Below, piece after piece: positions 6,536-28,044 of a stretch of DNA of 48,541 nt. Within the stretch, counting starts at the first letter, position 1. The number at the start of each line of letters is the position of its first letter. The position numbers were made by a program, and so were the translations under genes. The notes beneath the pieces are model-generated. The model saw only the letters and a program-made list of their open reading frames with translations. It did no database searches and was not told where the DNA came from. Source of the stretch: Methanobacteriota archaeon (GTDB lineage Archaea; Hydrothermarchaeota; Hydrothermarchaeia; Hydrothermarchaeales; BMS3B); contig JAADFX010000130.1 in the NCBI GenBank assembly GCA_013152685.1, forward strand, positions 13,913 through 62,453, written 5' to 3'.

Positions 6536-6566
6536 GGGCGTATATTCCCCCCGGCAGTATTTATAT

Positions 6567-6585
6567 TTTTCGGATTTTCAGAAAA
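6567..6585. promoter_or_regulatory. Dyad TTTTC-N9-GAAAA (T-N11-A-like) in the LysR/cytochrome divergent intergenic region
   Basis: TTTTCGGATTTTCAGAAAA, read directly. It lies between the LysR start (6535) and the cytochrome start (6661). The TATA-like ATTTATATA and the GGAGGTGG ribosome-binding site follow downstream. Confidence 0.25.
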
Positions 6586-6660
6586 ATTGGGCGTTTAATT
6601 CGTATTTTACAAAAGATTTATATACCTCCCGGCGGCAATTTCTCTTCGGAGGTGGTAAAC

Positions 6661-8541
6661 ATGAGGGCTGCAATAGGTGGGGCTGTGCTCCTGCTTGTGC
6701 TCCTCTTCCCGGTGTATGCAGACTCCTGCGTGGACTGCCACGGCAGCAGGGAGAAGATGGAGCAGCTGGGCTACCCGCAGTTCTACTTCCCCCTGGAGGA
6801 GGTGAGGGAGCAGACGGGCATGCCCGCCACCTGCGTGGACTGCCACCTGGGCAATCCCGAGGCAACTGACCTGGAGGAAGCCCACAGGGGCGTGCTCTCG
6901 GTGCAGGTGGTGAGCAAGAAGGCCTTCTCCCTGCTGGACAGGGAGAACCTGATGTCAGCGCTCACGCCCAACGGGAGCAGGCTCACCAGCATGTTGCCAA
7001 AGGACAGGAGGGTGAACACCCTCATATACCACGACCGCGAGCCAGAGCTTTTCACCTTCAACAGGAGCGCTGTGGAGAGGACCTGCGGAAAGTGCCACCC
7101 GCGCCAGGTGGAGGAGTTCGCCCGCACGGTGATGGGCTCTGTGAGGTACCAGAGCATGTACAGGAACTGGACCGACACCCAGCTCGGACCGCACAACTGC
7201 GGCCCCTGGTACCTGGACCACTGGGAGGAAATCGCCAGTGAGAGCAGCGCCAACTACACCTACGAGCAGGCGAGGATAAACCAGAAGGCGTGCAACAGGT
7301 GCCACGTCTCCTGCCTGGACTGCCACTACGCCCCCTTCGAGGGCGAGGGGGTGCACAGGTTTGAGCGCACGCCGTCGCCGGTGAGCTGCTACGGCGGTGG
7401 CAGGGGCTCAATATGCCACGCGGGACCAGAGGAGCGCCGCAGAGGTGCGGGCTACCTGGGTGCGGAGTTCTCGAAGCCTCCTGGAAGGGAGCCGGATGTG
7501 CACGTGAAGTACAACCTCACCTGCGTGGACTGCCATGACCCCCTCGCCAAGGGGGGCATGGGCGGCGTTGAGAGAGAAGCGAGCTGCACCACCTGCCACG
7601 GAGAGATTGCGGAGGCCGTGAGCTCGAGCGACCACGCCAGCGTCGCCTGCGAGTCCTGCCACATAAAGGATGTGGGCGGCTACCAGCTGACGGTGTGGGG
7701 TCCGGGAAAGGTCGCCGGTGTTGCAACGCCCTACAAGAAGTACAGGAACTACTACGGCGAGGCGCCCAATCCGATACTCATCAGAGATGCCTCCGGGAAG
7801 TGGATACCGGTGAAGCCCTTCCCCATGGTCACCGTGGGCGTGGCGAAGGAGGTGAAGGGCAAGCCCGGCCCGAGCTTCAGGAGGAACGGCTCCAGGGACG
7901 CCTTCGCGCTGGTGGGGACCTTCGACGGCCTGCCCGAGAACAACCTGGCTCTGCTCTGGTTCCAGATGGACAAGATGTCCCACGCCATAAGGAAAGAGGC
8001 CAGGGACTGCGAGAGCTGCCACGCCTCGACGGAGCAGGGATTCTACGCGAAGTGGAAGTTCACAGACCAGGGGGCGGAGCCCTTCGAGGGCGAGCACCGC
8101 ATCGTTGCCAACAGCTCTGGGCTATACGCCCTGGGGCTGAGGAACACCACGCCCATAGTCACAAAGAAGGGGTGGAGCATCGCAGACCTGGCGCCCTGGT
8201 ACTACCTGAGGGACAAGTTCTACGCCAGGGGCGACTACTCCCTGCCGGAGGTGGAGGAGGCGAAGTACGCCGCCGCCAGGGCTGAGGCGGAGAGCTTCCT
8301 GGAGGAGTACGCAGCGCTGGAGCAGAGGCTCTCCAGAGCAGGAGATGCGGAGAAGCTGGAAGAGCTGGAGAAGGTCAGGGCGATAGGTGTGCACAACCCG
8401 CAGGAGGGCATCCGCCTGCTGAAGGAGCTGGGAGCGGAGCCCGCTCCCAAGCCTGAGGAGCGCGGAGTGTGCGGCCCCACGGCGGTGGCGCTGCTCGCGG
8501 CGCTCACCCTGGCGCTGGGGCGGTGCCTCAGGAGGGCGTAG
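6661..8541 (+). CDS. Exported multihaem c-type cytochrome (9 CxxCH plus one possible CX8CH) with CGP-CTERM-like anchor
   Basis: GGAGGTGG lies 6 nt upstream of ATG 6661. Signal peptide MRAAIGGAVLLLVLLFPVYA. Haem sites are CVDCH x3, CGKCH, CNRCH, CLDCH, CTTCH and CESCH x2. Many N-x-S/T sequons are present. A coiled-coil segment precedes GVCGPTAVALLAALTLALGRCLRRA. The part of the track ORF upstream of 6661 overlaps lysR. Confidence 0.85.
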   Translation: MRAAIGGAVLLLVLLFPVYADSCVDCHGSREKMEQLGYPQFYFPLEEVREQTGMPATCVDCHLGNPEATDLEEAHRGVLSVQVVSKKAFSLLDRENLMSALTPNGSRLTSMLPKDRRVNTLIYHDREPELFTFNRSAVERTCGKCHPRQVEEFARTVMGSVRYQSMYRNWTDTQLGPHNCGPWYLDHWEEIASESSANYTYEQARINQKACNRCHVSCLDCHYAPFEGEGVHRFERTPSPVSCYGGGRGSICHAGPEERRRGAGYLGAEFSKPPGREPDVHVKYNLTCVDCHDPLAKGGMGGVEREASCTTCHGEIAEAVSSSDHASVACESCHIKDVGGYQLTVWGPGKVAGVATPYKKYRNYYGEAPNPILIRDASGKWIPVKPFPMVTVGVAKEVKGKPGPSFRRNGSRDAFALVGTFDGLPENNLALLWFQMDKMSHAIRKEARDCESCHASTEQGFYAKWKFTDQGAEPFEGEHRIVANSSGLYALGLRNTTPIVTKKGWSIADLAPWYYLRDKFYARGDYSLPEVEEAKYAAARAEAESFLEEYAALEQRLSRAGDAEKLEELEKVRAIGVHNPQEGIRLLKELGAEPAPKPEERGVCGPTAVALLAALTLALGRCLRRA

Positions 8542-8556
8542 CCCTCCCTTTATTTT

Positions 8557-10094: not shown

Positions 10095-10574
10095 CTACTT
10101 CTTTATCCAGTCCGCAATAAACACCTTGTAGGTCCTGCCGAGCCTCTCCCGGGTTATTATCCCCTTCTTCTCCAGATTGAGCAGCAGGGCGCTCACCTTC
10201 GACTTTGAGAAGCCTGTGCGGAAGCGCAGCGAGTCCTGGGTGATGCCCTCATTCTCCCTTATTATCTCTATGAGAAGCGCCTCATCCTCACTCAGGGCGC
10301 GCTCAAGTATGGCGTAGCTCTTGCTGTCCTGCTTCTTCTCCTCCTCGGGCTTTGCCCACATGTAGAATAGGGCGCCAGCGGCTATGCCGGCAATAAAGGA
10401 CAGGGTGAGGCGGTACCTGAGCAGGGAAAGGCTCTCCTCGGTGAGCAGCAGCGAGGCCAGGGAATCCAGGCCAAAGTACACGATGAACACCAGCAGAAAG
10501 GTCGCCAGAACGCGCTCATTCTCCGTGGCCGGCTTTTTTATCTTCATGGTGGTATCCTTATTGGCGCCGGTCAT
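10095..10574 (-). CDS. Membrane-anchored winged-helix (MarR/TrmB-like) DNA-binding protein
   Basis: Two N-terminal TM helices followed by EALLIEIIRENEGITQDSLRFRTGFSKSKVSALLLNLEKKGIITRERLGRTYKV, a wHTH. Confidence 0.6.
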   Translation of the reverse strand: MTGANKDTTMKIKKPATENERVLATFLLVFIVYFGLDSLASLLLTEESLSLLRYRLTLSFIAGIAAGALFYMWAKPEEEKKQDSKSYAILERALSEDEALLIEIIRENEGITQDSLRFRTGFSKSKVSALLLNLEKKGIITRERLGRTYKVFIADWIKK

Positions 10575-10583: not shown

Positions 10584-11774
10584 CTATGGCAGCACTCCGG
10601 CACGCCTAATTATCCCCAGCATCTCCAGGCTGAAGGCCGAAGCCGAGAGCAGGAGCAGAAGGCCGCCCACCATGGAGACGGCGCTCTGGGACAGGTACAT
10701 CCCCAGGGCGAGCAGCACAACACCCGCATTGTAGGCGTAGAAAATCCAGCGAGAGCGCTCCGCGGAGAAGAGCTCCTTGAAGGAGGAGGGCGCCCTCTCC
10801 CGCTCCCTGGGCAGGATCCGCGCCCAAGCAAGCGTCGGGATCACGTGGTACAGCCCCCCGATTACCGTCTGGCCGACAAAGCCCAGGGCGGCCAGGTGGG
10901 CGTGGACTGAGGAGAGCCCCGCCTCAGGAAAGGCTGCCTGTACCAGGCCCAGGAGGAGAACCAGCAGCAGGTAGCCCAGGGCAGCCAGAAAGAACCTGGA
11001 CTCCACGGGCTCTGGCTTGAAGCTCATCCTGGTGGGCGCCGTGTAGCTCTTTACCATGTCGTAGGTGAAGAGGGCGGCTGCTGAGAGGAGGACCGCGCCG
11101 GAGAGGAGGAGAAGCGCCTCAGAGAGCCCGAAGCCGAGCACCATCCCCGCCGCCGAGATGAGGGTGAGGTAGAACACGTAGTCCACCCAGCGCCGGTTGT
11201 ATATGTCCTTGACCACCAGCATGGGGAGCATCCAGGACATGGCGCCGAAGATTATCAGGGTCACCCCGCCCACCAGGGAGAGGTGCACATGGGAAGGGCG
11301 GTAGCCGTAGAGGGCGGGGTTCAGGAGGATCAAAAACCCAAGCGTCGCCCCGAGGCTAAGAAGGACGCTGGCTGCCGAGTAGAACTTGAAGGCATAGTTT
11401 TCCCCCCTGCGCTCCGCGATGGTCGCCAGGATGTTGTAGGTGAAGAGGTAGAAGCACACCAGCAGGAGCAGTGCCCCAGCCGCCGCCACCAGGCGGTGGT
11501 GGGGGTAGCTCAGCGAAAACACCACCAGGCCGGAGTTGAAAAGCCAGAAACTCGCCGAGGCGGCGCGCTTGCTGTGGAGCTCAGCGCCGGTGAGGGTGGG
11601 AACCTGCTGGTACATGGTGGCAATTATAACGCCGCAGACGAACCCCACCAGGGCGAGGTGCACGTGCACAGGCGTGGGAACCGAGAGGCCGGCCAATCCG
11701 GCTAACCCGAGGAGGAGCGCCACAACAAAATACACCAGCGCCGCTGCCAGAAACCGCAGTATTACGGCCGACAT
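10584..11774 (-). CDS. Polytopic (about 12 TM) membrane protein with thrice-repeated H-x-H-L...P-x-L motif; function unknown, possibly haem/metal-binding
   Basis: The 396-aa ORF carries repeats PVHVHLALVGFVCGVIIATMYQQVPTL, PSHVHLSLVGGVTLIIFGAMSWMLPML and SVHAHLAALGFVGQTVIGGLYHVIPTL about 125-135 aa apart. It is co-oriented 200 nt downstream of the HAO-like gene. The CDS is confident; the function is not. Confidence 0.6.
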   Translation of the reverse strand: MSAVILRFLAAALVYFVVALLLGLAGLAGLSVPTPVHVHLALVGFVCGVIIATMYQQVPTLTGAELHSKRAASASFWLFNSGLVVFSLSYPHHRLVAAAGALLLLVCFYLFTYNILATIAERRGENYAFKFYSAASVLLSLGATLGFLILLNPALYGYRPSHVHLSLVGGVTLIIFGAMSWMLPMLVVKDIYNRRWVDYVFYLTLISAAGMVLGFGLSEALLLLSGAVLLSAAALFTYDMVKSYTAPTRMSFKPEPVESRFFLAALGYLLLVLLLGLVQAAFPEAGLSSVHAHLAALGFVGQTVIGGLYHVIPTLAWARILPRERERAPSSFKELFSAERSRWIFYAYNAGVVLLALGMYLSQSAVSMVGGLLLLLSASAFSLEMLGIIRRAGVLP

Positions 11775-11778: not shown

Positions 11779-11916
11779 CTAACCGTGAATCAGCATCGGC
11801 AGGCAGCGGGTGCAGATGTAGTGCTTATCCTGCCGGTGGTAGTACTTTATGAGGGGAACCTCATCCTCACTCCGCTGGCAGTTTTCACACTTCTTCATGC
11901 TTATGAAGATAGCCAT
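11779..11916 (-). CDS. Small zinc-ribbon protein (45 aa; 39 aa from the second ATG), not in the ORF track
   Basis: Reverse translation gives MAIFISMKKCENCQRSEDEVPLIKYYHRQDKHYICTRCLPMLIHG* (CxxC-x24-CxxC). The stop lies 4 nt before the start of the downstream membrane-protein gene. Confidence 0.4.
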   Translation of the reverse strand: MAIFISMKKCENCQRSEDEVPLIKYYHRQDKHYICTRCLPMLIHG

Positions 11917-11969: not shown

Positions 11970-13460
11970 TCAGGGCTTCCTCCTTCTCCTGAGCAGCAGC
12001 GCATACCCTGCCACCGGCAGCAGCGCAAGGGCAGCCACTGACGTGGGACCGCACACGCCCTTCTGCTTCTCCAGCTTGGCAACGCGCTCCTCGAGCTCCT
12101 TCTTCTCCCGCTCCATCTCGAGCCACTCTTCCATCATGTTGAGCTTGTCCATCAGCGCATCCACTGCACCGTTCCAGTGGGTCCAGTCGGGCCCCATCAT
12201 GCTGGCGCCCATCCTCCACCTTCTGCCGTCGTGGTGCCAGATGTAGTAGTACATGATCTCCGGAATCTCGTCTATCGGGTTGGACTTGTCTATGAGTCCC
12301 TCCTCGTAGGCGGCGTTGAGGAGCTGCTCCGTGTACTCGTACACCCTGTTGTAGTCCTCCACCACCTTGTCGAAGCTCTCGAAGTAGCCGTCAACCCAGT
12401 CGCTGGCGTGGCACACCCTGCACACCTTCTTCATCTCTGCCCTGCCCCGCTTTGCCTGCTCCAAATCGGGCTTCTGCTCTCCCAGGGGCACCTTGCTGGC
12501 GTCGTCCCACTGGGGCGTCGACTTCTTGGGCTGAAGCTCCCAGTAGAGCCTGGCTCCAACGTCGTGGGTGCTCTCAACCACTCCGCCAAAGCCGGACATG
12601 TGGCAGGTGGCGCAGGTGGGTGCCGCTATGTCCTCGGGACCCCACTGACCAGGGGGCACGTCCCAGTTCCAGTCTTCGCCGCTGCTCGCGTAGATGTTGC
12701 CGTGCTTGCTCTCCTCGTAGATCTCTATCTGCGGATGGTCAGGGCCGAGATGGCACTGGCCGCAGGTCTCGGGCTTCCTCGCTTCGGCTATGCTGAACCT
12801 GTGGCGAGTGTGGCAGGCGGAGCAGGTTCCCATGCTGCCGTCGGGGTTGATCCTGCCTATGCCATTGTTGGGCCAGCCGTCCACCAGATTGCCGTTCTTT
12901 GATATCACGTAGCTTCCGTGGCACTCCAGGCAGCCCAGCACCTGGTTCTCCTGGTGGTAGTTCTCGTCATCCAGGAGGCCGATGCGCTTCAGGGCACCGC
13001 TGTCCGGGAACAGCGGCGTGAGCTGCCCCCTTATGAAGTCCCTGGGGTTGTTCTCAATGGCGGTCTCCAGCTTCAGCGGGTCCTTGCCCTGCTTCACCAT
13101 CTCCCTGTACCAGGGCTTCAGCGGCCCTATGAAGGCTGCCCAGGCGTGCTTGCTCCTTGAAAACTCCGCAACCTGCTTTGGATGACAGCTCTCGCAGTAG
13201 CGCGGTGATACCACTGCCGTGACCCTGTAGCCCATGTGCTCAAAGCCGGAGGGGTCGTCATCCTTGGCGAGGTGGCAAACATAACACTTCACTCCCACCT
13301 TGCTGTGCTTACTCTCCTCCCACTGCTTCACTATCCCTGGGGTTACGGTGTCGTGACAGCTCAGACAGGGCGCCCCTGGCTCTCTGAATTCCTGTGCGTT
13401 AGCTGTACTGAGCAACATCGCTGCAGCTATCGCAAAAATTAAGAGATGCTTTAACCTCAT
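11970..13460 (-). CDS. hao: HAO-family (hydroxylamine oxidoreductase-like) octahaem c-type cytochrome with CGP-CTERM-like anchor
   Basis: Signal peptide MRLKHLLIFAIAAAMLLSTANA. Eight CxxCH sites are present: CLSCH, CYVCH, CESCH, CLECH, CSACH, CGQCH, CATCH and CRVCH. HAO/HDH-like blocks include VKQWEESKHSKVGVKCYVCH and YIWHHDGRRWRMGASMMGPDWTHWNG. The C-terminus has a coiled coil followed by KGVCGPTSVAALALLPVAGYALLLRRRRKP. Confidence 0.85.
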   Translation of the reverse strand: MRLKHLLIFAIAAAMLLSTANAQEFREPGAPCLSCHDTVTPGIVKQWEESKHSKVGVKCYVCHLAKDDDPSGFEHMGYRVTAVVSPRYCESCHPKQVAEFSRSKHAWAAFIGPLKPWYREMVKQGKDPLKLETAIENNPRDFIRGQLTPLFPDSGALKRIGLLDDENYHQENQVLGCLECHGSYVISKNGNLVDGWPNNGIGRINPDGSMGTCSACHTRHRFSIAEARKPETCGQCHLGPDHPQIEIYEESKHGNIYASSGEDWNWDVPPGQWGPEDIAAPTCATCHMSGFGGVVESTHDVGARLYWELQPKKSTPQWDDASKVPLGEQKPDLEQAKRGRAEMKKVCRVCHASDWVDGYFESFDKVVEDYNRVYEYTEQLLNAAYEEGLIDKSNPIDEIPEIMYYYIWHHDGRRWRMGASMMGPDWTHWNGAVDALMDKLNMMEEWLEMEREKKELEERVAKLEKQKGVCGPTSVAALALLPVAGYALLLRRRRKP

Positions 13461-13503
13461 ATTCTCACCCAGTTAACAATCTCCCACTCATATATTAAAA
13501 AGG

Positions 13504-13544
13504 TTTTTTTAAAAAGTGATTTAAATAAAGATTGTAGTGTTAAA
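13504..13544 (-). promoter_or_regulatory. hao upstream composite element TTTAACACTA-N19-TTTTTAAAAAAA (gene orientation)
   Basis: Read directly. The plus strand is TTTTTTTAAAAA-GTGATTTAAATAAAGATTG-TAGTGTTAAA. N19 contains the TATA-like TATTTAAAT. The proximal end lies 43 nt from the hao ATG. The same outer blocks occur with the same spacing upstream of napA. Confidence 0.55.
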
Positions 13545-14652: not shown

Positions 14653-14891
14653 TCCACCTCATCCTCCACGTTCAGGTACACCAGCTGGAAGTCCACCACG
14701 TCCTCCCACTTCTCTATCTCCTCCGAGAGCTTCTTGAGCTCCTTTGTGCTTCTCCCCTCCATCACCACTGCAATTCCCCGGGTGCCCCTCCCCTTAACCT
14801 CGACTCCCGGGAGGTTCCTGAGGTTCCTCTCCACCTCGTCCTCCCTCCCGGGCACCGGCACAATTACCGCTCCAGATATGGGCAAATCCAT
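14649..14891 (-). CDS. napD: NapD-like Tat-proofreading chaperone
   Basis: 80 aa from the ATG at 14891, which overlaps the napH TGA within GGAGGTGATGG. The sequence ISGAVIVPVPGREDEVERNLRNLPGVEVKG...GIAVVMEGRSTKELKKLSEEIEKWEDVVDFQLVY matches the NapD ferredoxin-like pattern. The longer track ORF overlaps napH. Confidence 0.72.
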   Translation of the reverse strand: MDLPISGAVIVPVPGREDEVERNLRNLPGVEVKGRGTRGIAVVMEGRSTKELKKLSEEIEKWEDVVDFQLVYLNVEDEVE

Positions 14892-15736: not shown

Positions 15737-15737
15737 G

Positions 15738-19546: not shown

Positions 19547-19587
19547 TTTTTTTAAAAATTTTATTTATATCCCTCCATAGTGTTAAA
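19547..19587 (-). promoter_or_regulatory. napA upstream composite element TTTAACACTA-N19-TTTTTAAAAAAA (gene orientation)
   Basis: The plus strand is TTTTTTTAAAAA-TTTTATTTATATCCCTCCA-TAGTGTTAAA. N19 holds the TATA-like ATATAAATA. The proximal end lies 53 nt from the napA ATG. The outer blocks and the spacing are identical to the hao element. Confidence 0.55.
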
Positions 19588-21753: not shown

Positions 21754-22745
21754 TCGCCCACCTCGGGGGGTACCACGCGCACTGGAAGGCGCTCCGGGAG
21801 ATGGCGCAGATCCAGGACCACTATTCCGCCGTCGTAGTCTGCAACATACGCACTGCCCTCCGCCACCGCTATGCCGTAGGCGTTTCCGGGGGTGTCGTAC
21901 TCCGCCACCGGCTCAAGCCTGCCGTCCTCGTGGATCCTGAGCAGCGCCACGCCGCTGTTCGCGAGGGTTACCAGCAGGTAGTCCCTGTAGCTGGCTAGCC
22001 GCAGGGCAAAGCCCGGAAGCTGGAGGTTCTGCTGGTGAACAAGCCTGCCGTCCGGAGATATCCTGTACACATCCACCCCGGCATCTGAGCTAGCCACGTA
22101 CGCGTGGGAGCCCCTGACCAGGACGTCGTGGGCAACACTGCTCGTGGGAACAAAGCCCAGGAACTCCAGGGAGCCGTTCTTCCGGAGCCTGGCCACGTAC
22201 AGCCGCATTGTGAAGTCGGCCAGGTACAGCGTCCTGTCCCTTACGCTCACGCCCTTTGGGTAGCTGTAGTTGCCGGGCTTGTAGAACCTCTGGCTGAGGG
22301 TGGCAAGGTCAAGAACCACCAGGCCAGAGGCCACACAGGCGAGGAAGGCACTGTTGCCGGAGATAACAATCTTCTGGGCGGTGTGGTTCAGCACCACCTC
22401 CGCCAGGAGCTGCGGCTGGGCGGGGGTGCTCACGTCCAGCAGGTAAAGCTTCCCCAGGGTGTCGCTGACGTAGAGCGTCCTCCCGGACACCGCCAGGGTC
22501 TGGGCCTCGCCGGGGGTTCTGAAGCCCCCTATCCTGCGCAGGCTTCCCGCCCCTATTGAGAAGATGTCCAGCCCCCAGGGTGAGACCGCATATAAGTACT
22601 CGTCGTACACCAGAACATCGTAGTAGTAGTGGGGCTTTTGAGGACTGATGTCCGGCTGATATCCCTGATTCTCGCCGGACACGCATCCTGCAAGCACCAG
22701 CAGCAGTGGAATCGCCACCCAGTAGAGGGTCCTATGTCCACACAT
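21750..22745 (-). CDS. LVIVD-repeat beta-propeller lipoprotein
   Basis: Lipobox LLLVLAGC. The repeated units are G.a..v.v.g..aYva....Gl.v.D.s (YLLDVS, LVVLDLA, GVDVYRI, GIVVLDL). The ATGA overlap with the kinase gene couples the two. A start at 22772 is also possible. Confidence 0.7.
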   Translation of the reverse strand: MCGHRTLYWVAIPLLLVLAGCVSGENQGYQPDISPQKPHYYYDVLVYDEYLYAVSPWGLDIFSIGAGSLRRIGGFRTPGEAQTLAVSGRTLYVSDTLGKLYLLDVSTPAQPQLLAEVVLNHTAQKIVISGNSAFLACVASGLVVLDLATLSQRFYKPGNYSYPKGVSVRDRTLYLADFTMRLYVARLRKNGSLEFLGFVPTSSVAHDVLVRGSHAYVASSDAGVDVYRISPDGRLVHQQNLQLPGFALRLASYRDYLLVTLANSGVALLRIHEDGRLEPVAEYDTPGNAYGIAVAEGSAYVADYDGGIVVLDLRHLPERLPVRVVPPEVGE

Positions 22746-22893
22746 CTTCTCCTCTAAGGCCACAGCGCACATCTGGTAAATTTTACTTAAATTTTTACTT
22801 ATTTATCTTTTAATATAAAATTCCCTTTATATAAAATTTCTTTTAAAATAAAGTTTTAAGGACTGGAGGTTCAAAAGATACTACGGTGATGGT

Positions 22894-23067: not shown

Positions 23068-23715
23068 ATGAGCAAAATACTGATAGTGGATGACGACAGG
23101 CACACGACGGGGGTTCTGGAAAAAGCCCTCCGCAGGAGCGGATTCCAGGTCATCACCGCCGAGAGCGCCACGGAGGGTATAAACAGGCTCGTGGAGGAGC
23201 AGCCCGACCTGGTGCTCCTGGACCTCGTGCTCCCTGACATGCGCGGACTGCAGGCCCTGGATGAGATAAGCAGGCTCTCCCCGGAGACAAAGGTCATAAT
23301 AATAAGCGCCTTCCCCTCCATAGGCGACGTGGTGGAGGCCATGAAGCTGGGAGCGAGCGATGTGCTGGTGAAGCCCTTCAACGTGGACGAGCTGGTGAGC
23401 ATAGTAAAGAAGACCCTGGAGGAGGCCCGGCTGGAGCGCAGGATTGAGGCCAAGATAAGCGACACGGTGATAAAGGCGCTCTCAAACCCCATCCGCAAGA
23501 GGATAGCCTTCTACCTGCTGCATGCCGGTGTCAGGAGGTTCTCCGAGATAGCCAGGAGCACAGAGATGGACGACCCCTCCAAGCTCAGCTTTCACCTGCG
23601 AGTCCTGATAGACGCCGGGATAGTGTGCAAGAACAGGGCTGGGCAGTACTCCCTCACAGGCGACGGCAGGGCGATAGTGGAGAGGCTCCTGCTCAGGCTG
23701 GAGGAGGAGGTCTGA
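23068..23715 (+). CDS. Response regulator: REC domain plus ArsR-type winged-helix output (paralog of 19659-20318)
   Basis: MSKILIVDDD..., DLVLLDLVLPDMRG, and C-terminal LSNPIRKRIAFYLLHAGVRRFSEIA...KLSFHLRVLIDAGIV. The architecture and motifs match the other regulator. Confidence 0.85.
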   Translation: MSKILIVDDDRHTTGVLEKALRRSGFQVITAESATEGINRLVEEQPDLVLLDLVLPDMRGLQALDEISRLSPETKVIIISAFPSIGDVVEAMKLGASDVLVKPFNVDELVSIVKKTLEEARLERRIEAKISDTVIKALSNPIRKRIAFYLLHAGVRRFSEIARSTEMDDPSKLSFHLRVLIDAGIVCKNRAGQYSLTGDGRAIVERLLLRLEEEV

Positions 23716-23841
23716 GCACAGCCCCTCCACCCGCTGCCCAGCGGAGTATTATAAAAATTTTTTTAAAACAAGCTTTTTATATCCGCATATTTAAAAAATG
23801 TATAGATTTAAATAAAAATGTTTATTGTCCGGGTGGCGTCG

Positions 23842-25065
23842 ATGGAGAAGCTTGTGACTCTCAAGAGGGCGCGCGAGATTATCAACTCCCTCAGGGAGAG
23901 GTGCTACTTCAACCGCACCACTGAGCTAGTGGAGGTTGACACCTCCCTGCTCGGCAGGGAGCTCGCCAGGGATGTGCCCGCCCCGGAGGACTCCCCTCCC
24001 CACGACATCGCCAGCTACGACGGGTATGCCATGCGCAGCGACGACGCCAAGCGTTATCCGCTGCGCATTGTGGGAAGCGTGTATGCGGGCGACGCCTACG
24101 AAACCCTGCCCGAGCTGGGCGAGGGTGAGGCTGTGTACGTCGCCACGGGTGCCTTTCTGCCCCCGGGCGCCGACTGCGTGCTGCGCTTGGAGGATGCCCG
24201 CGTTGAGGGCGACCTGCTCTACGGCATAGACATCCAGAGGGGCACAAAGGTCGTGCCCCGTGGGAGCAACTACCGGAAGGGTGAGGTGGTGCTTAGGGCA
24301 AAAACAAGGATCCGCGCCCAGGAGTTCGGGATACTCCACGGCCTCGGCGTTGACAGGGTGGAGGTCTTCCGCAGGCCCAGGGTTGCGGTATTCGCCACAG
24401 GAAACGAAATCGCCCGCGGGATAATCAGGGACGTAAACTCCTTCGTGGTGCTCGCGCTGCTGGAGCAGTGGGGGTGTGAGGCGGAGTACCTGGGAGCCAT
24501 CGAGGACGACTACGACGCAACTGTGAGCGCCATCTCCCGGGCCGCGGAGGAGTACGACTGCGTTGTCACCAGCGGCGGTGTCAGCGTCGGGCGGCGGGAC
24601 TATGTGCTCCGCGCCATCGAGGAGCTGGGCGACGTGCTGCTCTACAAGGTGAAAACCCGCCCCGGCAAGCCGGTGGCGGTTGGAGTGGTGGGCGAAAAGC
24701 CGGTGTTTGCGCTGCCCGGCAAGCCGACGGGCGCCCTGGTGGCGGCACTTCTCCACCTCCGCAGGTACTTCCTGGGCAGGGGCGAGGAGCCCTTCGTCTT
24801 CGCGAGAATTACCGAGGACATCCTCCTCTCAACGAAGGACACGGACGCCCCCGACATCGCAAACCTGGTGTTTGTGCACCTGGAAAACGGCTCTGCCCGG
24901 CCCATAGGCTTCCCGGGGAGTGAGATGCCGCTGATGAAGAGGGGCGAGCGGTACAACGTCTCCGCCATCGCCTCCAACCTGCGCAGCGCCCTGGTGGACG
25001 GGTATGCGATTGTGGAGAGGGACACCCGGAGGGGTGAGCAGGTAAAGGTTCACCTGTTTACGTGA
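23842..25065 (+). CDS. moeA: Molybdopterin molybdotransferase MoeA
   Basis: The ATG at 23842 follows GGTGG. The sequence shows the MoeA pattern (SYDGYAMRSDD, GEAVYVATGAFLPPGADCVL, VAVFATGNEI, VVTSGGVSVG..D, KPGKP). Confidence 0.88.
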   Translation: MEKLVTLKRAREIINSLRERCYFNRTTELVEVDTSLLGRELARDVPAPEDSPPHDIASYDGYAMRSDDAKRYPLRIVGSVYAGDAYETLPELGEGEAVYVATGAFLPPGADCVLRLEDARVEGDLLYGIDIQRGTKVVPRGSNYRKGEVVLRAKTRIRAQEFGILHGLGVDRVEVFRRPRVAVFATGNEIARGIIRDVNSFVVLALLEQWGCEAEYLGAIEDDYDATVSAISRAAEEYDCVVTSGGVSVGRRDYVLRAIEELGDVLLYKVKTRPGKPVAVGVVGEKPVFALPGKPTGALVAALLHLRRYFLGRGEEPFVFARITEDILLSTKDTDAPDIANLVFVHLENGSARPIGFPGSEMPLMKRGERYNVSAIASNLRSALVDGYAIVERDTRRGEQVKVHLFT

Positions 25066-25076
25066 GGTGGTAAAGG

Positions 25077-25673
25077 ATGGAAGCTGAAGAGAGGGAAATT
25101 GTGGAGCTGGCGGAGAGGCTCCACGGTCACCTCGCACCCGGCATAGCGCTCGGCGTCAGGATGGCATCGCTGGCGCTCAGGAGGCTGGGCACACGGCGGG
25201 GTAGCAAGAAGCTCATAGCGATAAGCGAGACTGCGCGCTGCCTCGCCGACGGAATGCAGGCGGCCACCGGCGCAACCCTGGGGCACGGCAACGCCTTCGT
25301 GGAGAACTACGGCAAGCTCGCCCTCACCGTCGCAAGGAGCGACACCATGCAGGGCTACCGGGTCGCCCTCCGCAGGGACGCCTGGCGCCACTCCAGGCTG
25401 ATGAAGAAGTGGATGCTCAGGGAGGGCAAGCTGACCAGGGAGGAGGAGAAACGCCTCGCCGAGGAGCTCCTGAACCTGGGCGAGGAGTGGCTCGAGGTCA
25501 CCCCGGTCAGGGTGAACATGGATGTGCTCTTCGAGAACTCCAGGATAGTGAGGTGCTCCTCCTGCGGCGACCTGGTGCCCGAGAGGCTCAGCATCGGTGA
25601 AAACGGAAGCCGCATCTGCAAGAGCTGCGCCGGCACCGGATACTACCGCATGGCCGAGTGTGCGCTGGTGTAG
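25077..25673 (+). CDS. FmdE-family protein with C-terminal zinc ribbon
   Basis: ERLHGHLAPGIALGVRMA and CLADGMQAATGATLGHGN are typical of FmdE. The C-terminal CSSCGDLV...CKSC forms the zinc ribbon. Confidence 0.78.
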   Translation: MEAEEREIVELAERLHGHLAPGIALGVRMASLALRRLGTRRGSKKLIAISETARCLADGMQAATGATLGHGNAFVENYGKLALTVARSDTMQGYRVALRRDAWRHSRLMKKWMLREGKLTREEEKRLAEELLNLGEEWLEVTPVRVNMDVLFENSRIVRCSSCGDLVPERLSIGENGSRICKSCAGTGYYRMAECALV

Positions 25674-25680
25674 GCGGCTG

Positions 25681-26088
25681 CTACATCACCATGACCTCTC
25701 CGTCGCGGGTGACCGCCACCTCTATCTCGGAGAGCACCCGCCTACCCCGGATCTTATCCCCCGCCCCCTGCTGTATGAGCACCGCCAGCGACGGGAAGCT
25801 GTAGGAAATCCATATCCCCGCCTCATCCGCCCTGCGGTATATCTCCCTGACCGCCTGGTTCAGGTCTGTCTCGGGCTTGATCACCACGCTCAGCGGTGCC
25901 TCGAGCATCTTCACCAGCCGCAGGGTGTTCTCCGCGCGCTTTATGTTCTCCCTCGCCTTCCTCTCCGTCGCCGAGACGTTGGCAACCGTCGTCCCCAGGC
26001 GCCGGGCTATCTCGCTGGTGGTGAGCCCCTGAGCCTTCAGCTTCAGCACCTCAATCTGACGCTCCGTGAGTACAGTATCACGGACCAT
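25681..26088 (-). CDS. tfx: Tfx-family DNA-binding transcriptional regulator
   Basis: The N-terminal LuxR/sigma-r4-like HTH is LTERQIEVLKLKAQGLTTSEIARRLGTTVANVSATERKARENI. The size and C-terminal domain match archaeal Tfx. Confidence 0.75.
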   Translation of the reverse strand: MVRDTVLTERQIEVLKLKAQGLTTSEIARRLGTTVANVSATERKARENIKRAENTLRLVKMLEAPLSVVIKPETDLNQAVREIYRRADEAGIWISYSFPSLAVLIQQGAGDKIRGRRVLSEIEVAVTRDGEVMVM

Positions 26089-26584
26089 GGTGCAGGAACC
26101 TCTCCTCTATGAAGTCAGCCAGCCTGTCGGTATCGTCGAAGCCGAAGACCTCACACCCCGCCCTGAGCTCAGTGTCGCTGACCACGGCAACAATCTCACC
26201 GCCGGCGGCGCCCGTGAACAGCTTCAGGTCCTCGTCGCCGGTTGCCACCAGGATCTTAGGCGTCTCCGCCCTGGCATAGCCCTCCGTCAGCACCAGGTCC
26301 ATGTCCCCCATGTAGCGGGAGACGATGTCCCTCAGGAACATCTCCTTCGGCGTGGTGCGCATCAGCACCAGGCGATCCGGGGAGGAAATCGCCACCACGT
26401 CCGCGCCCGCCGCCGCGTGCCTCCAGGTGTCCTTGCCCGGCATGTCCATGCTGAAGCCGTAGTGGATGTGGTGCTTTACGGTCCCCACCCGGTACCCCCT
26501 CGCCTTGAGGGCGGCTATCAGACGCTCGAGCACCGTCGTTTTGCCCGCCTTCTTCCTGCCAATAACCGAGATTACGGGGGGCAT
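26078..26584 (-). CDS. mobB: Molybdopterin-guanine dinucleotide biosynthesis adapter MobB
   Basis: P-loop GRKKAGKTT, then GYRVGTVKHH...DMPGKDTWRH. Confidence 0.88.
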   Translation of the reverse strand: MPPVISVIGRKKAGKTTVLERLIAALKARGYRVGTVKHHIHYGFSMDMPGKDTWRHAAAGADVVAISSPDRLVLMRTTPKEMFLRDIVSRYMGDMDLVLTEGYARAETPKILVATGDEDLKLFTGAAGGEIVAVVSDTELRAGCEVFGFDDTDRLADFIEERFLHHGP

Positions 26585-26656
26585 GTTAAATGATGCAGTT
26601 TTAACTGGATATAAATTTTGCGGAATCCGGGGGATAGTTAAACAAAGTAATTTAAG

Positions 26657-27343
26657 CTACTTGCGCATGCTGCGGGACGCCAGGCGCAGCCACCCGTCGA
26701 AGAAGACCTCCGCCCAGCGGTTGAGCTCCGCCACCCTCTGCTCCAGGTTGTGCAATATCTCCTCCCGCCTCTCGGGCACCTCCCTCACCCAGTCGCGCAC
26801 CATCTCGGCGGTGACCTCCAGGTGGTACTGCAGCGCGTAGCTCCTGCCTGTTCGGAATGCCTGGTGCGGGTAAAGCTCGGAGCCGGCGAGCAGCCTCGCC
26901 CCGGCGGGCAGGTCGAAGGTTTCGCCGTGCCAGTGAAAGACCTCGAGGCGGTGAGGAAAGGCTGAGAAAACCTCATCCCGCCTCCCCTCCCCGGTGAGGG
27001 TTATCGGGTACCACCCCAGCTCCCTCTCCCTGCCGGGGTACACCCTCGCACCCAGGGCGCTTGCTATCAGCTGCGCCCCCAGGCAGATGCCGAGGAGCGG
27101 CTTCTCCACCTCAAGGGCGCGCCTTATGAGCGCCTTCTCCTCCGCCAGGTAGGGGTAATCGGACTCCTCGTTTACGCTCATCGGACCCCCCAGGAACACC
27201 AGGAGGTCATAATCCAGGGCGCCCTCCAGGTCGTCTCCCCTCCACAGGCGCCGGTACTCAACCTCTATACCGCGCGCCTCTGCAAGCTCCTCGAGGCAGC
27301 CCAGGTGCTCCCCCTCCGCATTCTCAAAGGCCAGGAGCCTCAC
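26657..27343 (-). CDS. Class I glutamine amidotransferase-like protein (GMP-synthase-type GATase1)
   Basis: Nucleophile elbow LLGICLGAQL. A later H-x-E lies in LQYHLE. Size is about 228 aa. Confidence 0.75.
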   Translation of the reverse strand: MRLLAFENAEGEHLGCLEELAEARGIEVEYRRLWRGDDLEGALDYDLLVFLGGPMSVNEESDYPYLAEEKALIRRALEVEKPLLGICLGAQLIASALGARVYPGRERELGWYPITLTGEGRRDEVFSAFPHRLEVFHWHGETFDLPAGARLLAGSELYPHQAFRTGRSYALQYHLEVTAEMVRDWVREVPERREEILHNLEQRVAELNRWAEVFFDGWLRLASRSMRK

Positions 27344-27352
27344 ACAACAACC

Positions 27353-27565
27353 TCAGCAGGAGCTGTGCTCTATAGCTCCCTCGGGGCACGCCTCCACGCA
27401 GGCGCAGCACTCTATGCAGTCCGCCACGCGCGGCGCAGTGCTCTTGCCGTCCACCAGCTCGTAGACCTCCGCCGGGCACACGTCAACGCACTCCCCGTGC
27501 CCCTTGCACTTGTCGTAGTCTATCTTGATGGTCACATCAGCCTTGAACTCCCTTATGTCAGCCAT
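27353..27565 (-). CDS. Small 2x[4Fe-4S]-type ferredoxin
   Basis: 70 aa with CKGHGECVDVCP and CIECCACVEACP. Confidence 0.85.
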   Translation of the reverse strand: MADIREFKADVTIKIDYDKCKGHGECVDVCPAEVYELVDGKSTAPRVADCIECCACVEACPEGAIEHSSC

Positions 27566-27615
27566 GCCGCTACCTCCTAGGATAATTCTCCCGCTCCATC
27601 TATTTATACTTAGCG

Positions 27616-28044
27616 CTACGGGTGCTCCTCCACCCAGACCTCGCCCTCACTGGTGTACTCCTTCTTCCAGATGGGCACGTGCTTCTTCAGCTCATCTATC
27701 ACGTAGCGGCAGGCCTCAAACGCCTGCCTGCGATGCTCCGCCGCGGCAACGATGAGCACTATGTTCTCCCCTATTCCCAGCTCACCGTAGCGGTGGACCA
27801 CGGATATCTCCACCAGGTCGAACTTCTGCTTCGCCTGCCTTCGAATCTCCTCCAGCTTCTTCTCAGCCATCCCCGGGTAGTGCTCGAACTCCAGCTTCTC
27901 CACCTCCTTCCCCCGGGAGAAGTCGCGCACCGTTCCCAGGAAGGTAACTATGCCCCCTATTCTGCTCGACACGGCCTTTATGCGGTTTATCTCCTCCTCG
28001 ACGGAGAAGTCCTCCCTCTGCACGCGAACCCATTCGCCTGCCAT
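27616..28044 (-). CDS. moaE: Molybdopterin synthase catalytic subunit MoaE
   Basis: GGIVTFLGTVRD...LEFEHYPGMAEK...VHRYGEL.IGE..V.I..AA.HR..AF.AC.Y.ID.LK..VPIWKKE is the canonical MoaE pattern. Confidence 0.88.
   Translation of the reverse strand: MAGEWVRVQREDFSVEEEINRIKAVSSRIGGIVTFLGTVRDFSRGKEVEKLEFEHYPGMAEKKLEEIRRQAKQKFDLVEISVVHRYGELGIGENIVLIVAAAEHRRQAFEACRYVIDELKKHVPIWKKEYTSEGEVWVEEHP

Follow-up and report, generated by a model that had tools for sequence, protein, structure and literature searches.

Does this archaeal locus encode a complete route from nitrate to ammonium, in which a Nap-type nitrate reductase is paired with an octahaem cytochrome of the HAO family, and how much of the locus belongs to it? 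The window, a stretch of 48,541 nucleotides, is part of a 62-kb contig; the MAG to which this contig belongs is Candidatus Pyrohabitans-like and represents a deep-sea vent archaeon of the Hydrothermarchaeota. The earlier note had overstated the novelty of the system, as NapADGH had been reported from this phylum in 2019 (PMC6775978, PMC6759336), ammonification clusters that combine Nap with a Hao-type enzyme are known in cultured vent bacteria (PMC5276818) and also in Campylobacterota, and the GenBank record already labels the octahaem protein 'hydroxylamine oxidoreductase'. The searchable literature yielded no archaeal Nap–octahaem pairing, and this pairing, together with the addition of an FrhB-like protein, appears to be undescribed.

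Extent of the conserved block

The genes that the earlier note assigned to its island are all real and lie where it had placed them, or a few codons off (Table 1). However, the range 6536-28044 is too large to be treated as one unit, as synteny keeps only about 10.1-23.7 kb (10095-23715). Read from its RR2 end, this block comprises RR2, tatA, an LVIVD lipoprotein gene, the gene for a haem-c sensor kinase, RR1 and napA, followed by a lipoprotein gene, napG, napH, napD, and the genes for a permuted FrhB/FpoF-like protein and the octahaem cytochrome, and it ends with genes for an oxidase-subunit-I-like protein and a membrane-bound winged-helix regulator. The survey of relatives found this gene order again in at least five other archaeal contigs (order kept in loci L001, L008 and L083), and the same block is embedded in a JdFR-16 contig of 620 kb and recurs in several independent assemblies. 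Loci L085 and L086 also have the FrhB-like gene with the nap genes, but arranged differently.

Nor does nearly every gene of the larger range serve one theme, since dph2 and genes for a SHOCT membrane protein, a GATase, a ferredoxin and Tfx/FmdE do not belong to it. The exported multihaem cytochrome at one end is the 9- to 10-haem protein that had been described, and it lies outside the conserved cluster together with dph2; the orthologous JdFR-16 neighbourhood contains neither. At the other end, the identities of moeA, mobB and moaE were confirmed, but these molybdenum cofactor genes, with the GATase and ferredoxin genes interspersed, adjoin nap in some genomes only (in JdFR-18, L002, and not in JdFR-16 or S141_78). 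The archaeal character of the surroundings was borne out by Dph2, Tfx, archaeal-type PheS/PheT, PcrB/GGGPS and Nre, with the correction that dph2 lies inside the range and is no flank. Neither a tRNA nor a compositional break was seen at the range edges, and none of the ORFs within the range that were scanned with Pfam has a recombinase domain; thus, nothing marks it as a mobile island.

Table 1. Features of the locus in window coordinates
Feature	Position	Strand	Evidence or remark
9(+1)-haem cytochrome	6661-8541	+	9 CxxCH motifs and a family-invariant C-x8-CH
Membrane-anchored winged-helix (DUF7343/MarR-like) regulator	10095..10574	-	Pfam; last gene of conserved block
396-aa 12-TM protein, haem-copper-oxidase subunit I fold	10584..11774	-	Pfam COX1, sub-threshold NnrS
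45-aa CxxC...CxxC protein, ends CLPMLIHG	11779..11916	-	Partner of oxidase-like membrane protein
HAO-family octahaem cytochrome c, IhOCC type	11970..13460	-	8 CxxCH, Pfam PF13447
Promoter motif TTTTTAAAAAAACCTTTT	13498..13515	-	38-55 nt upstream of octahaem gene
Permuted FrhB/FpoF-like flavo-iron-sulfur protein	13552..14652	-	Pfam FrhB_FdhB_C residues 2-151, FrhB_FdhB_N 288-357
napD, Tat-proofreading chaperone for NapA	14649..14951	-	Pfam NapD 2.6e-13, residues 25-97
napH, membrane quinol-dehydrogenase subunit	14891..15778	-	NCBIfam NapH/MauN 1.6e-34, Pfam Fer4_5 x2
napG, Tat-exported ferredoxin, four [4Fe-4S] motifs	15738..16478	-	NCBIfam NapG
143-aa lipoprotein, LAGC lipobox	16475..16906	-	C-terminal domain of ~85 aa strongly conserved
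napA, monomeric (NapB-less) type, 825 aa	17016..19493	-	Tat signal SRREFIK
Promoter motif TTTTTAAAAAAAGGTTTT	19541..19558	-	48-65 nt upstream of napA
RR1, receiver + ArsR/DUF7347 wHTH	19659..20321	-	Pfam; longest ORF 19659-20375, likely start M19
Sensor histidine kinase	20290..21753	-	Pfam: Tll0287-like domain, then HAMP, HisKA, HATPase
LVIVD-repeat beta-propeller lipoprotein	21750..22772	-	Pfam LVIVD 1e-16; first gene of kinase operon
Degenerate motif copy, 3 mismatches	22840..22857	+	Divergent LVIVD/tatA intergenic region
tatA, 46 aa	22894..23034	+	NCBIfam tatAE 55.5 bits vs 53.9 cutoff
RR2, receiver + ArsR/DUF7347 wHTH	23068..23715	+	Pfam
Motif copy, 1 mismatch	23760..23777	+	41-58 nt upstream of moeA
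Peripheral Moco neighbourhood	23818..28044		Pfam and NCBIfam matches
moeA	23818-25065	+	Pfam/NCBIfam
fmdE	25077-25673	+	Pfam/NCBIfam
tfx	25681-26088	-	Pfam/NCBIfam
mobB	26078-26584	-	Pfam/NCBIfam
moaE	27616-28044	-	Pfam/NCBIfam

The nap genes, the octahaem cytochrome and their neighbours

Pfam, NCBIfam and hallmark motifs agree on a Tat-dependent napA-napGH-napD operon, with NapA, NapG, NapH and the FrhB-like protein all scoring below the curated NCBIfam cutoffs. By its sequence, the napA product is a true monomeric-type NapA and groups with bona fide NapA, not with another Mo-bisPGD clade. Its best PDB match is Desulfovibrio desulfuricans NapA (2jio/2nap, 650 bits; the top formate dehydrogenase reaches 377 bits), its Mo-Cys motif GNPRLCMASAVGGY is identical to that of this enzyme, and the NCBIfam NapA score of 673 bits is under the cutoff of 904 and over the Fdh score of 506. 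Molybdop_Fe4S4, Molybdopterin, Molydop_binding and TAT_signal are the Pfam domains. NapG matches its NCBIfam model at 1.6e-31 (109 bits, cutoff 269), and its translation shows an RRSFLK signal and four Cys clusters. NapH has two CX3CP motifs (CSWICP and CRSLCP) besides two cytoplasmic [4Fe-4S] motifs. For napD, a start codon further downstream than the first may be the true one. Cytochromes of the NapC/NrfH type or NapB/NapM are absent. The lipoprotein between napA and napG is found there in archaeal and Nitrospirota clusters (47-69% identity), and searches of Pfam and NCBIfam gave no match for it.

The octahaem protein is of the HAO family, as the earlier note had recognized, and its closest structure is archaeal: the best PDB match is IhOCC of Ignicoccus (4qo5; 1e-56 alone, 6e-88 with a profile), which has been called an octahaem nitrite reductase without P460 (PMC9250108). 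The protein carries a Sec signal, and its C-terminus has a coiled coil with a CGP-type membrane anchor, by which it is predicted to be tethered to the outer face of the membrane. An Asp241-His242 pair aligns with the DH of Nitrosomonas europaea HAO, and in the alignment no cross-link Tyr is present in the DWTHWNG segment where it would lie. Across the octahaem clade, neither this pair nor any of the eight haem sites varies, a sign that catalysis has been retained. HAOs that lack the cross-link work as reductases (PMC8042395), and we regard the protein as a candidate nitrite/hydroxylamine reductase of this reductive part of the family.

The circularly permuted FrhB/FpoF-like protein, whose gene start overlaps the napD stop, has the FrhB C-domain first, then two [4Fe-4S] motifs and then the FrhB N-domain; it matches both NCBIfam FrhB and FpoF below cutoff and has no signal peptide. 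A search of a collection of 5.8 billion proteins yielded only eight full-length clusters, and all relatives of at least 50% identity with a context that was read (window, L001, L008 and L083-L086) have genes that immediately follow napD in archaeal nap clusters.

The membrane protein next to the octahaem gene, noted before for its His motifs, is COX1-like. It has HxH motifs on helices 2, 6 and 10, and neither the conserved His pattern nor the AF2 model (pLDDT 92.9) contains the helix-7 His pair of the CuB/FeB site. Foldseek gave TM scores of 0.80-0.83 to cbb3 CcoN and 0.67 to NorB. The 45-aa CxxC protein is kept beside this gene in L001, L008 and the distant loci L081 and L082, and the membrane winged-helix regulator is 89% identical and in the same position in L001 and L008.

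Regulation and a common promoter motif

Pfam and NCBIfam matches confirmed the haem-c sensor kinase, the two regulators and tatA. The extracytoplasmic Tll0287-like domain of the kinase carries one CxxCH (haem c). Such kinases also adjoin nap–octahaem clusters in JdFR-18 and in the bacterial loci L003 and L006; the kinase type thus accompanies the cluster in both domains of life, whereas the regulator output domain is domain-specific. RR1 and RR2 are 90-95% and 83-88% identical, respectively, in L001 and L008. The LVIVD lipoprotein is kept in L001, L008 and L083, and tatA is also at the matching position in L008 and L083.

An 18-nt motif occurs at four distinct sites in the 48.5 kb, all of them module promoters, where 0.01 would be expected if local intergenic AT-richness is ignored. 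The octahaem-gene copy is at the matching place in L001, L008 and L083, the napA copy has an exact match upstream of napA in L001 and L083, and the LVIVD/tatA variant is identical in L001 and L008. In JdFR-18, a copy with three mismatches lies upstream of moeA. The occurrence of one motif at the napA, octahaem, tatA and moeA promoters supports their co-regulation, as judged from sequence.

Proposed pathway and competing readings

Taken together, the core is probably a respiratory nitrate-reduction module of Hydrothermarchaeota that would work as follows. NapGH would be the membrane electron-input pair and oxidize menaquinol; genes for menaquinone biosynthesis and Fqo have been reported in this phylum (PMC6775978). 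NapA, exported by Tat, chaperoned by NapD and independent of NapB, would take the electrons and reduce nitrate to nitrite. The octahaem cytochrome, supplied via NapG or via the adjoining oxidase-like b-type membrane protein, would convert nitrite and hydroxylamine to ammonium, the end-product that we infer. This would mirror epsilon-Hao of Campylobacterota and the nap-hao cluster known from vent bacteria that ammonify. Without NrfA, T. dismutans and D. thermophilus form ammonium from nitrate, and napMADGH and a HaoA homologue share one cluster in both (PMC5276818). The cytoplasmic FrhB/FpoF-like protein, a lineage-specific addition, might pass electrons from F420H2 or ferredoxin to the cytoplasmic Fe-S clusters of NapH. 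However, electron flow from cytoplasmic F420H2 to a periplasmic reductase would dissipate proton-motive force instead of generating it, and this step may therefore be wrong or serve redox balancing only. The kinase would sense a redox or N-oxide signal through haem c and, by way of the common motif, switch on the promoters of napA, the octahaem gene, tatA and moeA.

The octahaem cytochrome could instead form NO, as the reductive HAO of Kuenenia (HAOr) does, which lacks the cross-link and yields NO in vivo, not ammonium (PMC8042395). In that case, the cluster would encode a pathway that generates NO or a truncated form of denitrification, with NO handled by the neighbour with the HCO/NOR fold or by a Nor encoded elsewhere. 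Nor genes have been reported in Hydrothermarchaeota MAGs without NirS/K (PMC6759336, PMC11052009), and distant relatives of the membrane protein are encoded beside ScdA_N/DUF1858 and FeS_assembly_P genes, a context tied to nitrosative stress. We nevertheless consider this unlikely, as the nearest characterized relative is IhOCC and not HAOr (196 versus 96 bits), the membrane protein lacks the His pair required for a CuB/FeB site, is missing from most nap–octahaem clusters and is found without them elsewhere, and ammonium is the product in cultured bacteria that have a nap-hao cluster (PMC5276818).

Quite unlikely, too, is a role of the octahaem protein mainly as an electron wire or detoxifier, replacing NapB/NapM/NapC as NapA donor and scavenging nitrite or hydroxylamine in a redox-balancing sink rather than in energy-conserving ammonification. 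The absence of these three donors, the octahaem gene directly abutting napA in JdFR-18, L085 and L086, and JdFR-18 and L006, where NapA, NapD and the octahaem protein are present without NapGH within the fetched 10-kb flanks, would suit such a role. So would the dissipative chain that a cytoplasmic FrhB-like input would create, and the scarce nitrate, nanomolar to undetectable, in the Juan de Fuca crustal fluids inhabited by close relatives (PMC6775978). The invariance of the Asp-His pair and the haem sites speaks against it, and the dedicated sensor kinase and regulon fit a respiratory pathway better.

Reduction of sulfite, polysulfide or tetrathionate, in line with the sulfur reduction proposed for other uncharacterized HAO-family clades in vent Desulfobacterota and specifically for clade-I HAO proteins (Speth et al. 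2022; PMC9213671), would agree with Dsr, Apr and Sat in Hydrothermarchaeota (PMC6775978). It would also render the nap linkage coincidental and is very unlikely, as the octahaem gene adjoins napA in about 27 of the 80 closest NapA loci from many phyla, the NapA and octahaem trees are congruent, and both genes have the promoter motif in common.

That bacterial DNA was misjoined to an archaeal contig by chimeric assembly or binning error can practically be dismissed: NapA shares 73-76% identity with proteins from Nitrospirota and Thermodesulfobacteriota contigs, and GC drops to 0.558 in the kinase/regulator segment, but module and flanks match in codon usage, GC3 (0.75-0.85 and 0.77-0.90, respectively) and tetranucleotide profile (correlation 0.92-0.94), in keeping with the GC and codon look described in the earlier note, archaeal dph2 and tfx are interleaved, the block recurs in JdFR-16 and the independent assemblies, and the archaeal-type regulators, promoters and CGP anchors are all absent from the bacterial copies. 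As to an archaeal clade or bacterial transfer, both trees place the proteins in the same 99% clade with thermophilic Nitrospirota and Thermodesulfobacteriota, which makes an old cross-domain transfer likely. The respiratory module is likely old in the lineage and shares an ancestor with that of these bacteria.

No nitrite reductase of the NirS/K type was detected in one of the Hydrothermarchaeota studies (PMC6759336). If it reduces nitrite, the octahaem cytochrome could fill this step, which earlier genome studies of Hydrothermarchaeota had not found.

Gene content and extent of the module

The window contains a real, native and conserved archaeal Nap–octahaem module with its own sensing system, whose function is most likely the conversion of nitrate to nitrite and further to ammonium. 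An earlier note had proposed a candidate nitrate-ammonification island at 6536-28044, and all genes named there were recovered by ORF listing and translation, followed by Pfam and NCBIfam scans. The archaeal character of the flanks, which had also been claimed, is evident from archaeal-type PheS/PheT, PcrB/GGGPS, Nre, and Dph2. The same range also includes genes outside this theme, namely dph2 and the genes for a SHOCT membrane protein, a GATase, and a ferredoxin. The proteins of the window are found in GenBank as NOZ59994-NOZ60005, and RefSeq relatives carry the name Candidatus Pyrohabitans sp. Among GTDB species representatives, the closest NapA is that of Ca. Hydrothermarchaeota S141_78 (93% identical), followed by those of Ca. 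Pyrohabitans jungbluthii JdFR-16 (90%, on a 620-kb contig) and Ca. Hydrothermarchaeum profundi JdFR-18 (75%).

The extent of the unit was assessed by tblastn and ORF mapping of related loci. S141_78 and JdFR-16 have in common the gene order RR2 (response regulator), tatA, LVIVD lipoprotein, kinase, RR1 (response regulator), NapA, 143-aa lipoprotein, NapG, NapH, NapD, FrhB-like protein, octahaem, COX1-like protein (hereafter oxidase-like), and membrane wHTH protein, which corresponds to positions 10095-23715. In the more distant archaeal contig L083, gene order is retained between RR2 and the octahaem gene, within which the contig stops, and two further archaeal loci, L085 and L086, have a variant gene order. 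The 9-haem cytochrome and dph2 were not found within 2.9 kb past the wHTH gene of JdFR-16, and the RefSeq Pyrohabitans assembly has the 9-haem cytochrome and NapA on separate contigs. The Moco genes are next to nap in JdFR-18 (NapD-MoeA-FmdE-MobB-Tfx), and not in JdFR-16 or S141_78. Because the large cytochrome and dph2 are non-syntenic and the Moco adjacency varies, the "island" breaks down into a conserved module of ~13.6 kb, Moco genes whose adjacency varies, and a neighbouring cytochrome that is unrelated. The observation of the earlier note is confirmed. Synteny showed that the extent and the inclusion of the large cytochrome were overstated, and the interpretation as a whole is partly supported.

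GC3, codon usage, and tetranucleotide profile all match the flanks, in agreement with the native composition proposed earlier, and the GC content of napA follows that of the host across lineages (0.39-0.61). These data mark the module as old and ameliorated, and neither as a recent arrival nor as a chimera. A bacterial/archaeal chimeric assembly, named at the outset as an alternative, was rejected on composition, tRNA, repeat, and synteny evidence. We also rejected a mobile genomic island, as there is no compositional break, no tRNA at the edges (the only tRNAs of the window are at 36.4 and 37.4 kb), and no flanking direct repeat at the module edges; no recombinase domain was found among the Pfam-scanned ORFs inside 6536-28044. 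The kinase/regulator segment 19494-23715 has a lower GC content (0.558) and a tetranucleotide correlation to the flanks of 0.82-0.91, weaker than that of the remaining module. Two long AT-rich intergenic promoter regions account for part of this deviation, and the segment could conceivably have a separate history.

Features of the window and of compared loci (positions of other loci refer to those loci)
Feature	Position	Strand	Basis or remark
LysR-type regulator	5642-6535	-	further regulator; divergent from large cytochrome gene
Exported cytochrome c, 9 CxxCH	6661-8541	+	ORF translation
His-motif membrane (oxidase-like) protein	10584-11774	-	Pfam COX1 match; NnrS match sub-threshold
Oxidase-like + CLPMLIHG pair	10584-11916	-	window
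Same pair, S141_78	17568-18889
Same pair, JdFR-16	17587-18917
Same pair, locus L081	8001-10911
Same pair, locus L082	7118-9332
Octahaem, HAO family	11970-13460	-	Pfam PF13447, 5.8e-31
Motif TTTTTAAAAAAASSTTTT	13498-13515	-	octahaem gene downstream
FrhB-like protein	13552-14652	-
NapD	14649-14951	-	Pfam NapD 2.6e-13
NapH	14891-15778	-
NapG	15738-16478	-
143-aa lipoprotein	16475-16906	-
NapA, Tat-signal Mo-bisPGD enzyme	17016-19493	-	top family NapA
Motif TTTTTAAAAAAASSTTTT	19541-19558	-	napA downstream
RR1, receiver + ArsR/DUF7347	19659-20375	-
Histidine kinase	20290-21753	-	one CxxCH in extracytoplasmic Tll0287-like domain
LVIVD beta-propeller lipoprotein	21750-22772	-
Motif TTTTTAAAAAAASSTTTT	22840-22857	+	tatA downstream; divergent LVIVD/tatA intergenic region
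tatA	22894-23034	+	over NCBIfam cutoff
RR2, receiver + ArsR/DUF7347	23068-23715	+
Motif TTTTTAAAAAAASSTTTT	23760-23777	+	moeA downstream
moeA, fmdE, tfx, mobB, moaE			after RR2
Receiver-domain protein	28163-29155	+	just beyond moaE
PAS histidine kinase	37546-38889	+	close to tRNA-Leu
NapA-NapD-octahaem cluster, JdFR-18	8523-12714
NapA-NapD-octahaem cluster, locus L006	9971-14192
Variant cluster, locus L085	2713-13632

NapA and the multihaem cytochromes

The NapA of the window has the Pfam domains TAT_signal and Molybdop_Fe4S4, with an SRREFIK signal and a CRFCGTGC...C motif, and a HMMER alignment showed that the segment with the Mo-ligand cysteine, GNPRLCMASAVGGY, is identical in the NapA of D. 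desulfuricans. In a PDB search, NapAs ranked first, the best being the monomeric enzyme of D. desulfuricans at 650 bits, and formate dehydrogenases began at 377 bits. NCBIfam scored NapA at 673 bits, compared with Fdh at 506 and NasC at 414. An assignment to another, non-nitrate-reductase Mo-bisPGD clade, which had been considered as an objection, thus found no support. The sequence places the protein in a divergent NapA clade, since its scores are below the NCBIfam equivalog cutoffs (673 versus 904; 634 versus 930), and we infer nitrate as its specific substrate. No ORF for a dihaem NapB was found in the window, in which CxxCH motifs occur only in the two multihaem cytochromes and the kinase, and NapC and NapM are absent as well. 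A dedicated NapD chaperone is encoded in the operon. The nap operon of D. desulfuricans encodes NapC and NapM. Its NapA (PDB 2nap/2jio), the closest structural match, also lacks a NapB; the NapA of the window exceeds it by about 100 aa and has insertions outside the alignment at about residues 541-587 and 640-689. Both CX3CP motifs of NapH are retained, along with two [4Fe-4S] motifs in its C-terminal part; NapG combines a Tat signal with four [4Fe-4S] motifs. NapH and NapG are the top NCBIfam matches for their respective ORFs, albeit under the cutoff. The 143-aa lipoprotein holds a fixed position in the napA/napG interval of archaeal and Nitrospirota clusters, has no family match, and carries the invariant pattern PGLAFE..EQPY..D.T..IW..T...P..G..V.G.V..PYQIKGR; it could be an unrecognised Nap accessory subunit.

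The structure nearest to the octahaem is that of IhOCC (E 1e-56 alone and 6e-88 with the family profile, the alignment spanning profile positions 56-427, about residues 55-450), followed by the Kuenenia reductive HAO and the oxidative HAOs. IhOCC is Igni_0955 of Ignicoccus hospitalis (PDB 4qo5; Parey et al. 2016). Eight CxxCH motifs in the HAO arrangement and Asp241-His242 are invariant across 16 relatives, and this distal-pocket pair past haem 6 aligns with the "DH" of "GVDHNN" in the HAO of N. europaea, an Asp-His pair that we take to be catalytic. In the region of the cross-link tyrosine, the octahaem has GPDWTHWNG, without any Tyr, which aligns to GQDWTTFKR of IhOCC; Tyr467 of N. europaea presumably lies in "WTYTEG", with the residues from 475 onward confirmed by alignment. 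IhOCC lacks P460 and is named an octahaem nitrite reductase (PMC9250108), and HAOs without the cross-link are reductases (PMC8042395). By its sequence, the octahaem belongs to the cross-link-less, reductive HAO branch of the IhOCC type, and it is a candidate nitrite/hydroxylamine reductase. Both it and IhOCC are archaeal, membrane-associated octahaems without the cross-link Tyr (PMC9250108), whereas their sequence identity is moderate and the CGP-type tail is a feature of the window protein. HAO-family proteins were already known in archaea (PMC4429474). Regarding possible products, Kuenenia HAOr yields NO (PMC8042395), and ammonium is named as the product of epsilon-Hao (PMC9213671), an enzyme of Campylobacterota that reduces nitrite and hydroxylamine in vitro (PMC8042395) and for which ammonium production has been shown in vitro (Haase et al. 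2017, cited in PMC8042395); our comparison to epsilon-Hao is meant only in the sense that the octahaem may work like it.

Of the 80 best NapA loci, about 27 encode an octahaem homologue no more than 10 kb away from NapA. They come from Nitrospirota, Thermodesulfobacteriota, Planctomycetota, Verrucomicrobiota, Omnitrophota, Acidobacteriota, and KSB1, and the two genes abut in JdFR-18, L085, and L086. As the clusters of JdFR-18 and of the bacterial locus L006 consist of NapA, NapD, and octahaem only, and NapGH was not found in the 10 kb retrieved on either side, NapA and the octahaem represent the minimal conserved core, and the octahaem itself may be the electron donor to NapA. In L085 and L086 (JGI metagenomes 3300037673 and 3300037552), the octahaem gene is directly 5' of napA, and a second HAO-family cytochrome of 562 aa as well as a fusion protein of FlpD (MvhD-like) and ferredoxin are encoded downstream of the FrhB-like gene; this hints at a flavin- or Fe-S-based cytoplasmic electron input.

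Beyond its nine CxxCH motifs, the large cytochrome has C243-x8-C252-H253 (SCYGGGRGSICH), which is invariant in the family and may bind a tenth haem at an unusual CX8CH site. Its family has more than 569 members with 42-49% identity, and many of the named sources are Geobacteraceae, Desulfuromonadales, and Nitrospirota; a coiled coil and the CGP-type tail occur only in the five closest relatives (46-100% identity), of which the named ones are archaeal. The AF2 model is poor (pLDDT 64), with only noise in Foldseek, and the sequence matches to NrfA were insignificant (E 0.04).

Lineage-specific parts and regulation

The FrhB-like protein is a circular permutation of FpoF/FrhB, with the C-domain followed by 2x[4Fe-4S] and the N-domain. 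In archaeal Fpo/Fqo complexes, FpoF/FqoF oxidises F420H2 and acts as the input subunit. With FpoF/FqoF and FrhB, the protein shares the FrhB_N, FrhB_C, and two-[4Fe-4S] ferredoxin domains, whereas the permuted order, in which FrhB_N does not precede FrhB_C, the NCBIfam scores, which are all under the cutoff, and the position within a nap operon are its own. A search of a 5.8-billion-protein collection gave only eight full-length clusters, and all relatives with at least 50% identity whose context was read are encoded 3' of napD in archaeal nap clusters with NapGH. The gene was not found in the bacterial clusters, nor in JdFR-18, where no NapGH was found either. A relative with 38% identity adjoins genes for POR gamma and a ferredoxin-type (Fer4) protein. 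We infer that the FrhB-like protein would serve as a cytoplasmic electron-input module on NapH, and such an input would be energetically dissipative. The permuted gene, fixed after napD, hints at an unexplored electron feed into NapGH.

The oxidase-like protein (396 aa) is predicted by AF2 with a pLDDT of 92.9 as a 12-TM haem-copper-oxidase subunit I fold, and Foldseek gave TM scores of 0.80-0.83 to CcoN and 0.67 to NorB. HxH motifs on the pseudo-symmetric helices 2, 6, and 10, together with H310, are its only conserved histidines. There is no His in helix 7 (194-217) and hence no CuB/FeB pair; because this His pair is missing, and the six-His ligand set is incomplete, we rejected an identity as oxidase or NOR. 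The family is tiny (19 matches) and apparently uncharacterised. Its members always occur with a 39-45-aa CxxC...CLPMLIHG protein, and since the pair co-travels even in archaea without a nap cluster nearby, it is a separable mini-module. In distant archaea, FeS_assembly_P and ScdA_N/DUF1858 genes also adjoin the oxidase-like gene. The protein may act as a b-type partner in the membrane, or it may protect the cell in an NnrS-like way.

As had been noted earlier, AT-rich TATA-like promoters precede napA, the lipoprotein-napGHD-FrhB unit, the octahaem unit, both of the divergent units (kinase and tatA), and moeA. The motif TTTTTAAAAAAASSTTTT, with up to three mismatches, occurs at four distinct sites in 48.5 kb, each 37-65 nt 5' of its start codon, with 0.01 sites expected from a shuffling control that ignores intergenic AT-richness. 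It is found at the orthologous promoters of S141_78, JdFR-16, and L083 and, in part, at those of JdFR-18. The loci L003-L005 lack it, and L006 and L007 give only matches with three mismatches. We regard the motif as a candidate binding site of the local regulators, and it is cis-evidence of a single regulon, with octahaem and napA apparently co-regulated. The haem-c sensor kinase of the Tll0287 type is retained in archaeal and bacterial clusters, whereas the output domain of the regulators is ArsR/DUF7347 in archaeal copies and of the OmpR type in bacterial ones. Both cytochromes of the window end with GVCGPT[AS] followed by a hydrophobic helix and then an Arg-rich tail (8458-8541; 11970-12060). 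CGP-CTERM (TIGR04288) is the best or only NCBIfam match for three of the four tails tested (14-15 bits versus a cutoff of 21), and the tail is missing from the bacterial homologues of both cytochrome families. The resemblance to this sorting signal suggests that Hydrothermarchaeota have a specialized system for anchoring or lipidation.

Origin and physiological meaning

Neighbour-joining trees with 100 bootstraps and midpoint rooting, which are distance and not maximum likelihood trees, group the archaeal NapA sequences and five contigs labelled Nitrospirota/Thermodesulfobacteriota in a 99% clade, with Hydrothermarchaeota being monophyletic (95%). The octahaem tree has the same 99% clade, within which Nitrospirae S146_51 groups with JdFR-18 (89%); this nesting suggests more than one cross-domain transfer. 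The loci L003 and L006 are genuinely bacterial: they encode an outer-membrane porin as well as regulators of the OmpR type, and the N-termini of their flanking ORFs are RecN- and CoaD-like. Locus L005 (WGEZ01000060.1, labelled "Nitrospirae bacterium S146_64") has a tetranucleotide correlation of r = 0.75 to the window; its bacterial label is doubtful because of an archaeal-type receiver-DUF7347 regulator beside its nap-octahaem cluster and a GC content of 60%, and it may be mis-binned or represent one more transfer. The cluster appears to document that a complete respiratory module, together with its sensor kinase, passed between thermophilic bacteria and archaea. In the archaeal copies, the regulators, the promoters, and the putative anchors are of archaeal type.

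To our knowledge, characterised archaeal nitrate respiration uses Nar-type enzymes. The napA gene is rare in archaea (four archaeal genomes in one survey; PMC11052009). The novelty of an archaeal Nap system had been overstated in the earlier note, as NapADGH and a napA tree of JdFR Hydrothermarchaeota were published in 2019 (Carr et al., PMC6775978), and Kato et al. (2019) also described NapADGH and found no NirS/K (PMC6759336). The operon of the window is the one described from JdFR-16/17/18 of this phylum, and the gene order in JdFR-16 is identical. Both studies read the napA tree as "early-evolved", whereas our trees give a clade in common with thermophilic bacteria that is, in its entirety and with midpoint rooting, nested among bacterial NapA. 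Neither of them mentions the octahaem, the FrhB-like gene, the sensor kinase, or a nitrite-reducing step, and the words "hydroxylamine" and "octaheme" do not occur in them; the Hydrothermarchaeota genome papers examined contain no mention of an HAO or octahaem protein. Clusters of nap and hao have been described in NrfA-less, ammonium-producing vent bacteria, and ammonium production was physiologically demonstrated for Thermosulfurimonas dismutans and Dissulfuribacter thermophilus (PMC5276818). Their cluster shares with the archaeal one a NapC/NapB-less Nap with NapGH, NapD, and a cross-link-less HAO-family cytochrome, and the absence of NrfA. It differs by NapM and an NrfD/Fe-S/cytochrome quartet, both absent from the archaeal cluster, which in turn has the permuted FrhB-like protein, putative CGP-type anchors, the oxidase-like membrane protein, and ArsR/DUF7347 regulators.

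A more far-reaching reading, in which Hydrothermarchaeota would run an archaea-specific nitrate ammonification, has two parts, and that both hold together is in our view rather improbable. The permuted FpoF-like module would dock on the cytoplasmic Fe-S clusters of NapH, directly linking F420H2/ferredoxin (from CO/H2 oxidation and the Wood-Ljungdahl pathway) to NapA and the IhOCC-type octahaem, and a three-fold-symmetric, oxidase-subunit-I-like b-type cytochrome without a CuB/FeB site would be the membrane partner of the octahaem. If true, Nap would have an electron input of a new architecture, and the missing nitrite reductase of the phylum would be found.

Published metabolic reconstructions of Hydrothermarchaeota, an uncultured lineage that is abundant in hot subseafloor crust, end at nitrite, with no nitrite reductase reported, and the octahaem, co-inherited and apparently co-regulated with napA, is a concrete and testable candidate for the nitrite step. 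It therefore points to crustal and vent fluids in which nitrogen is retained as ammonium and not lost as gas.
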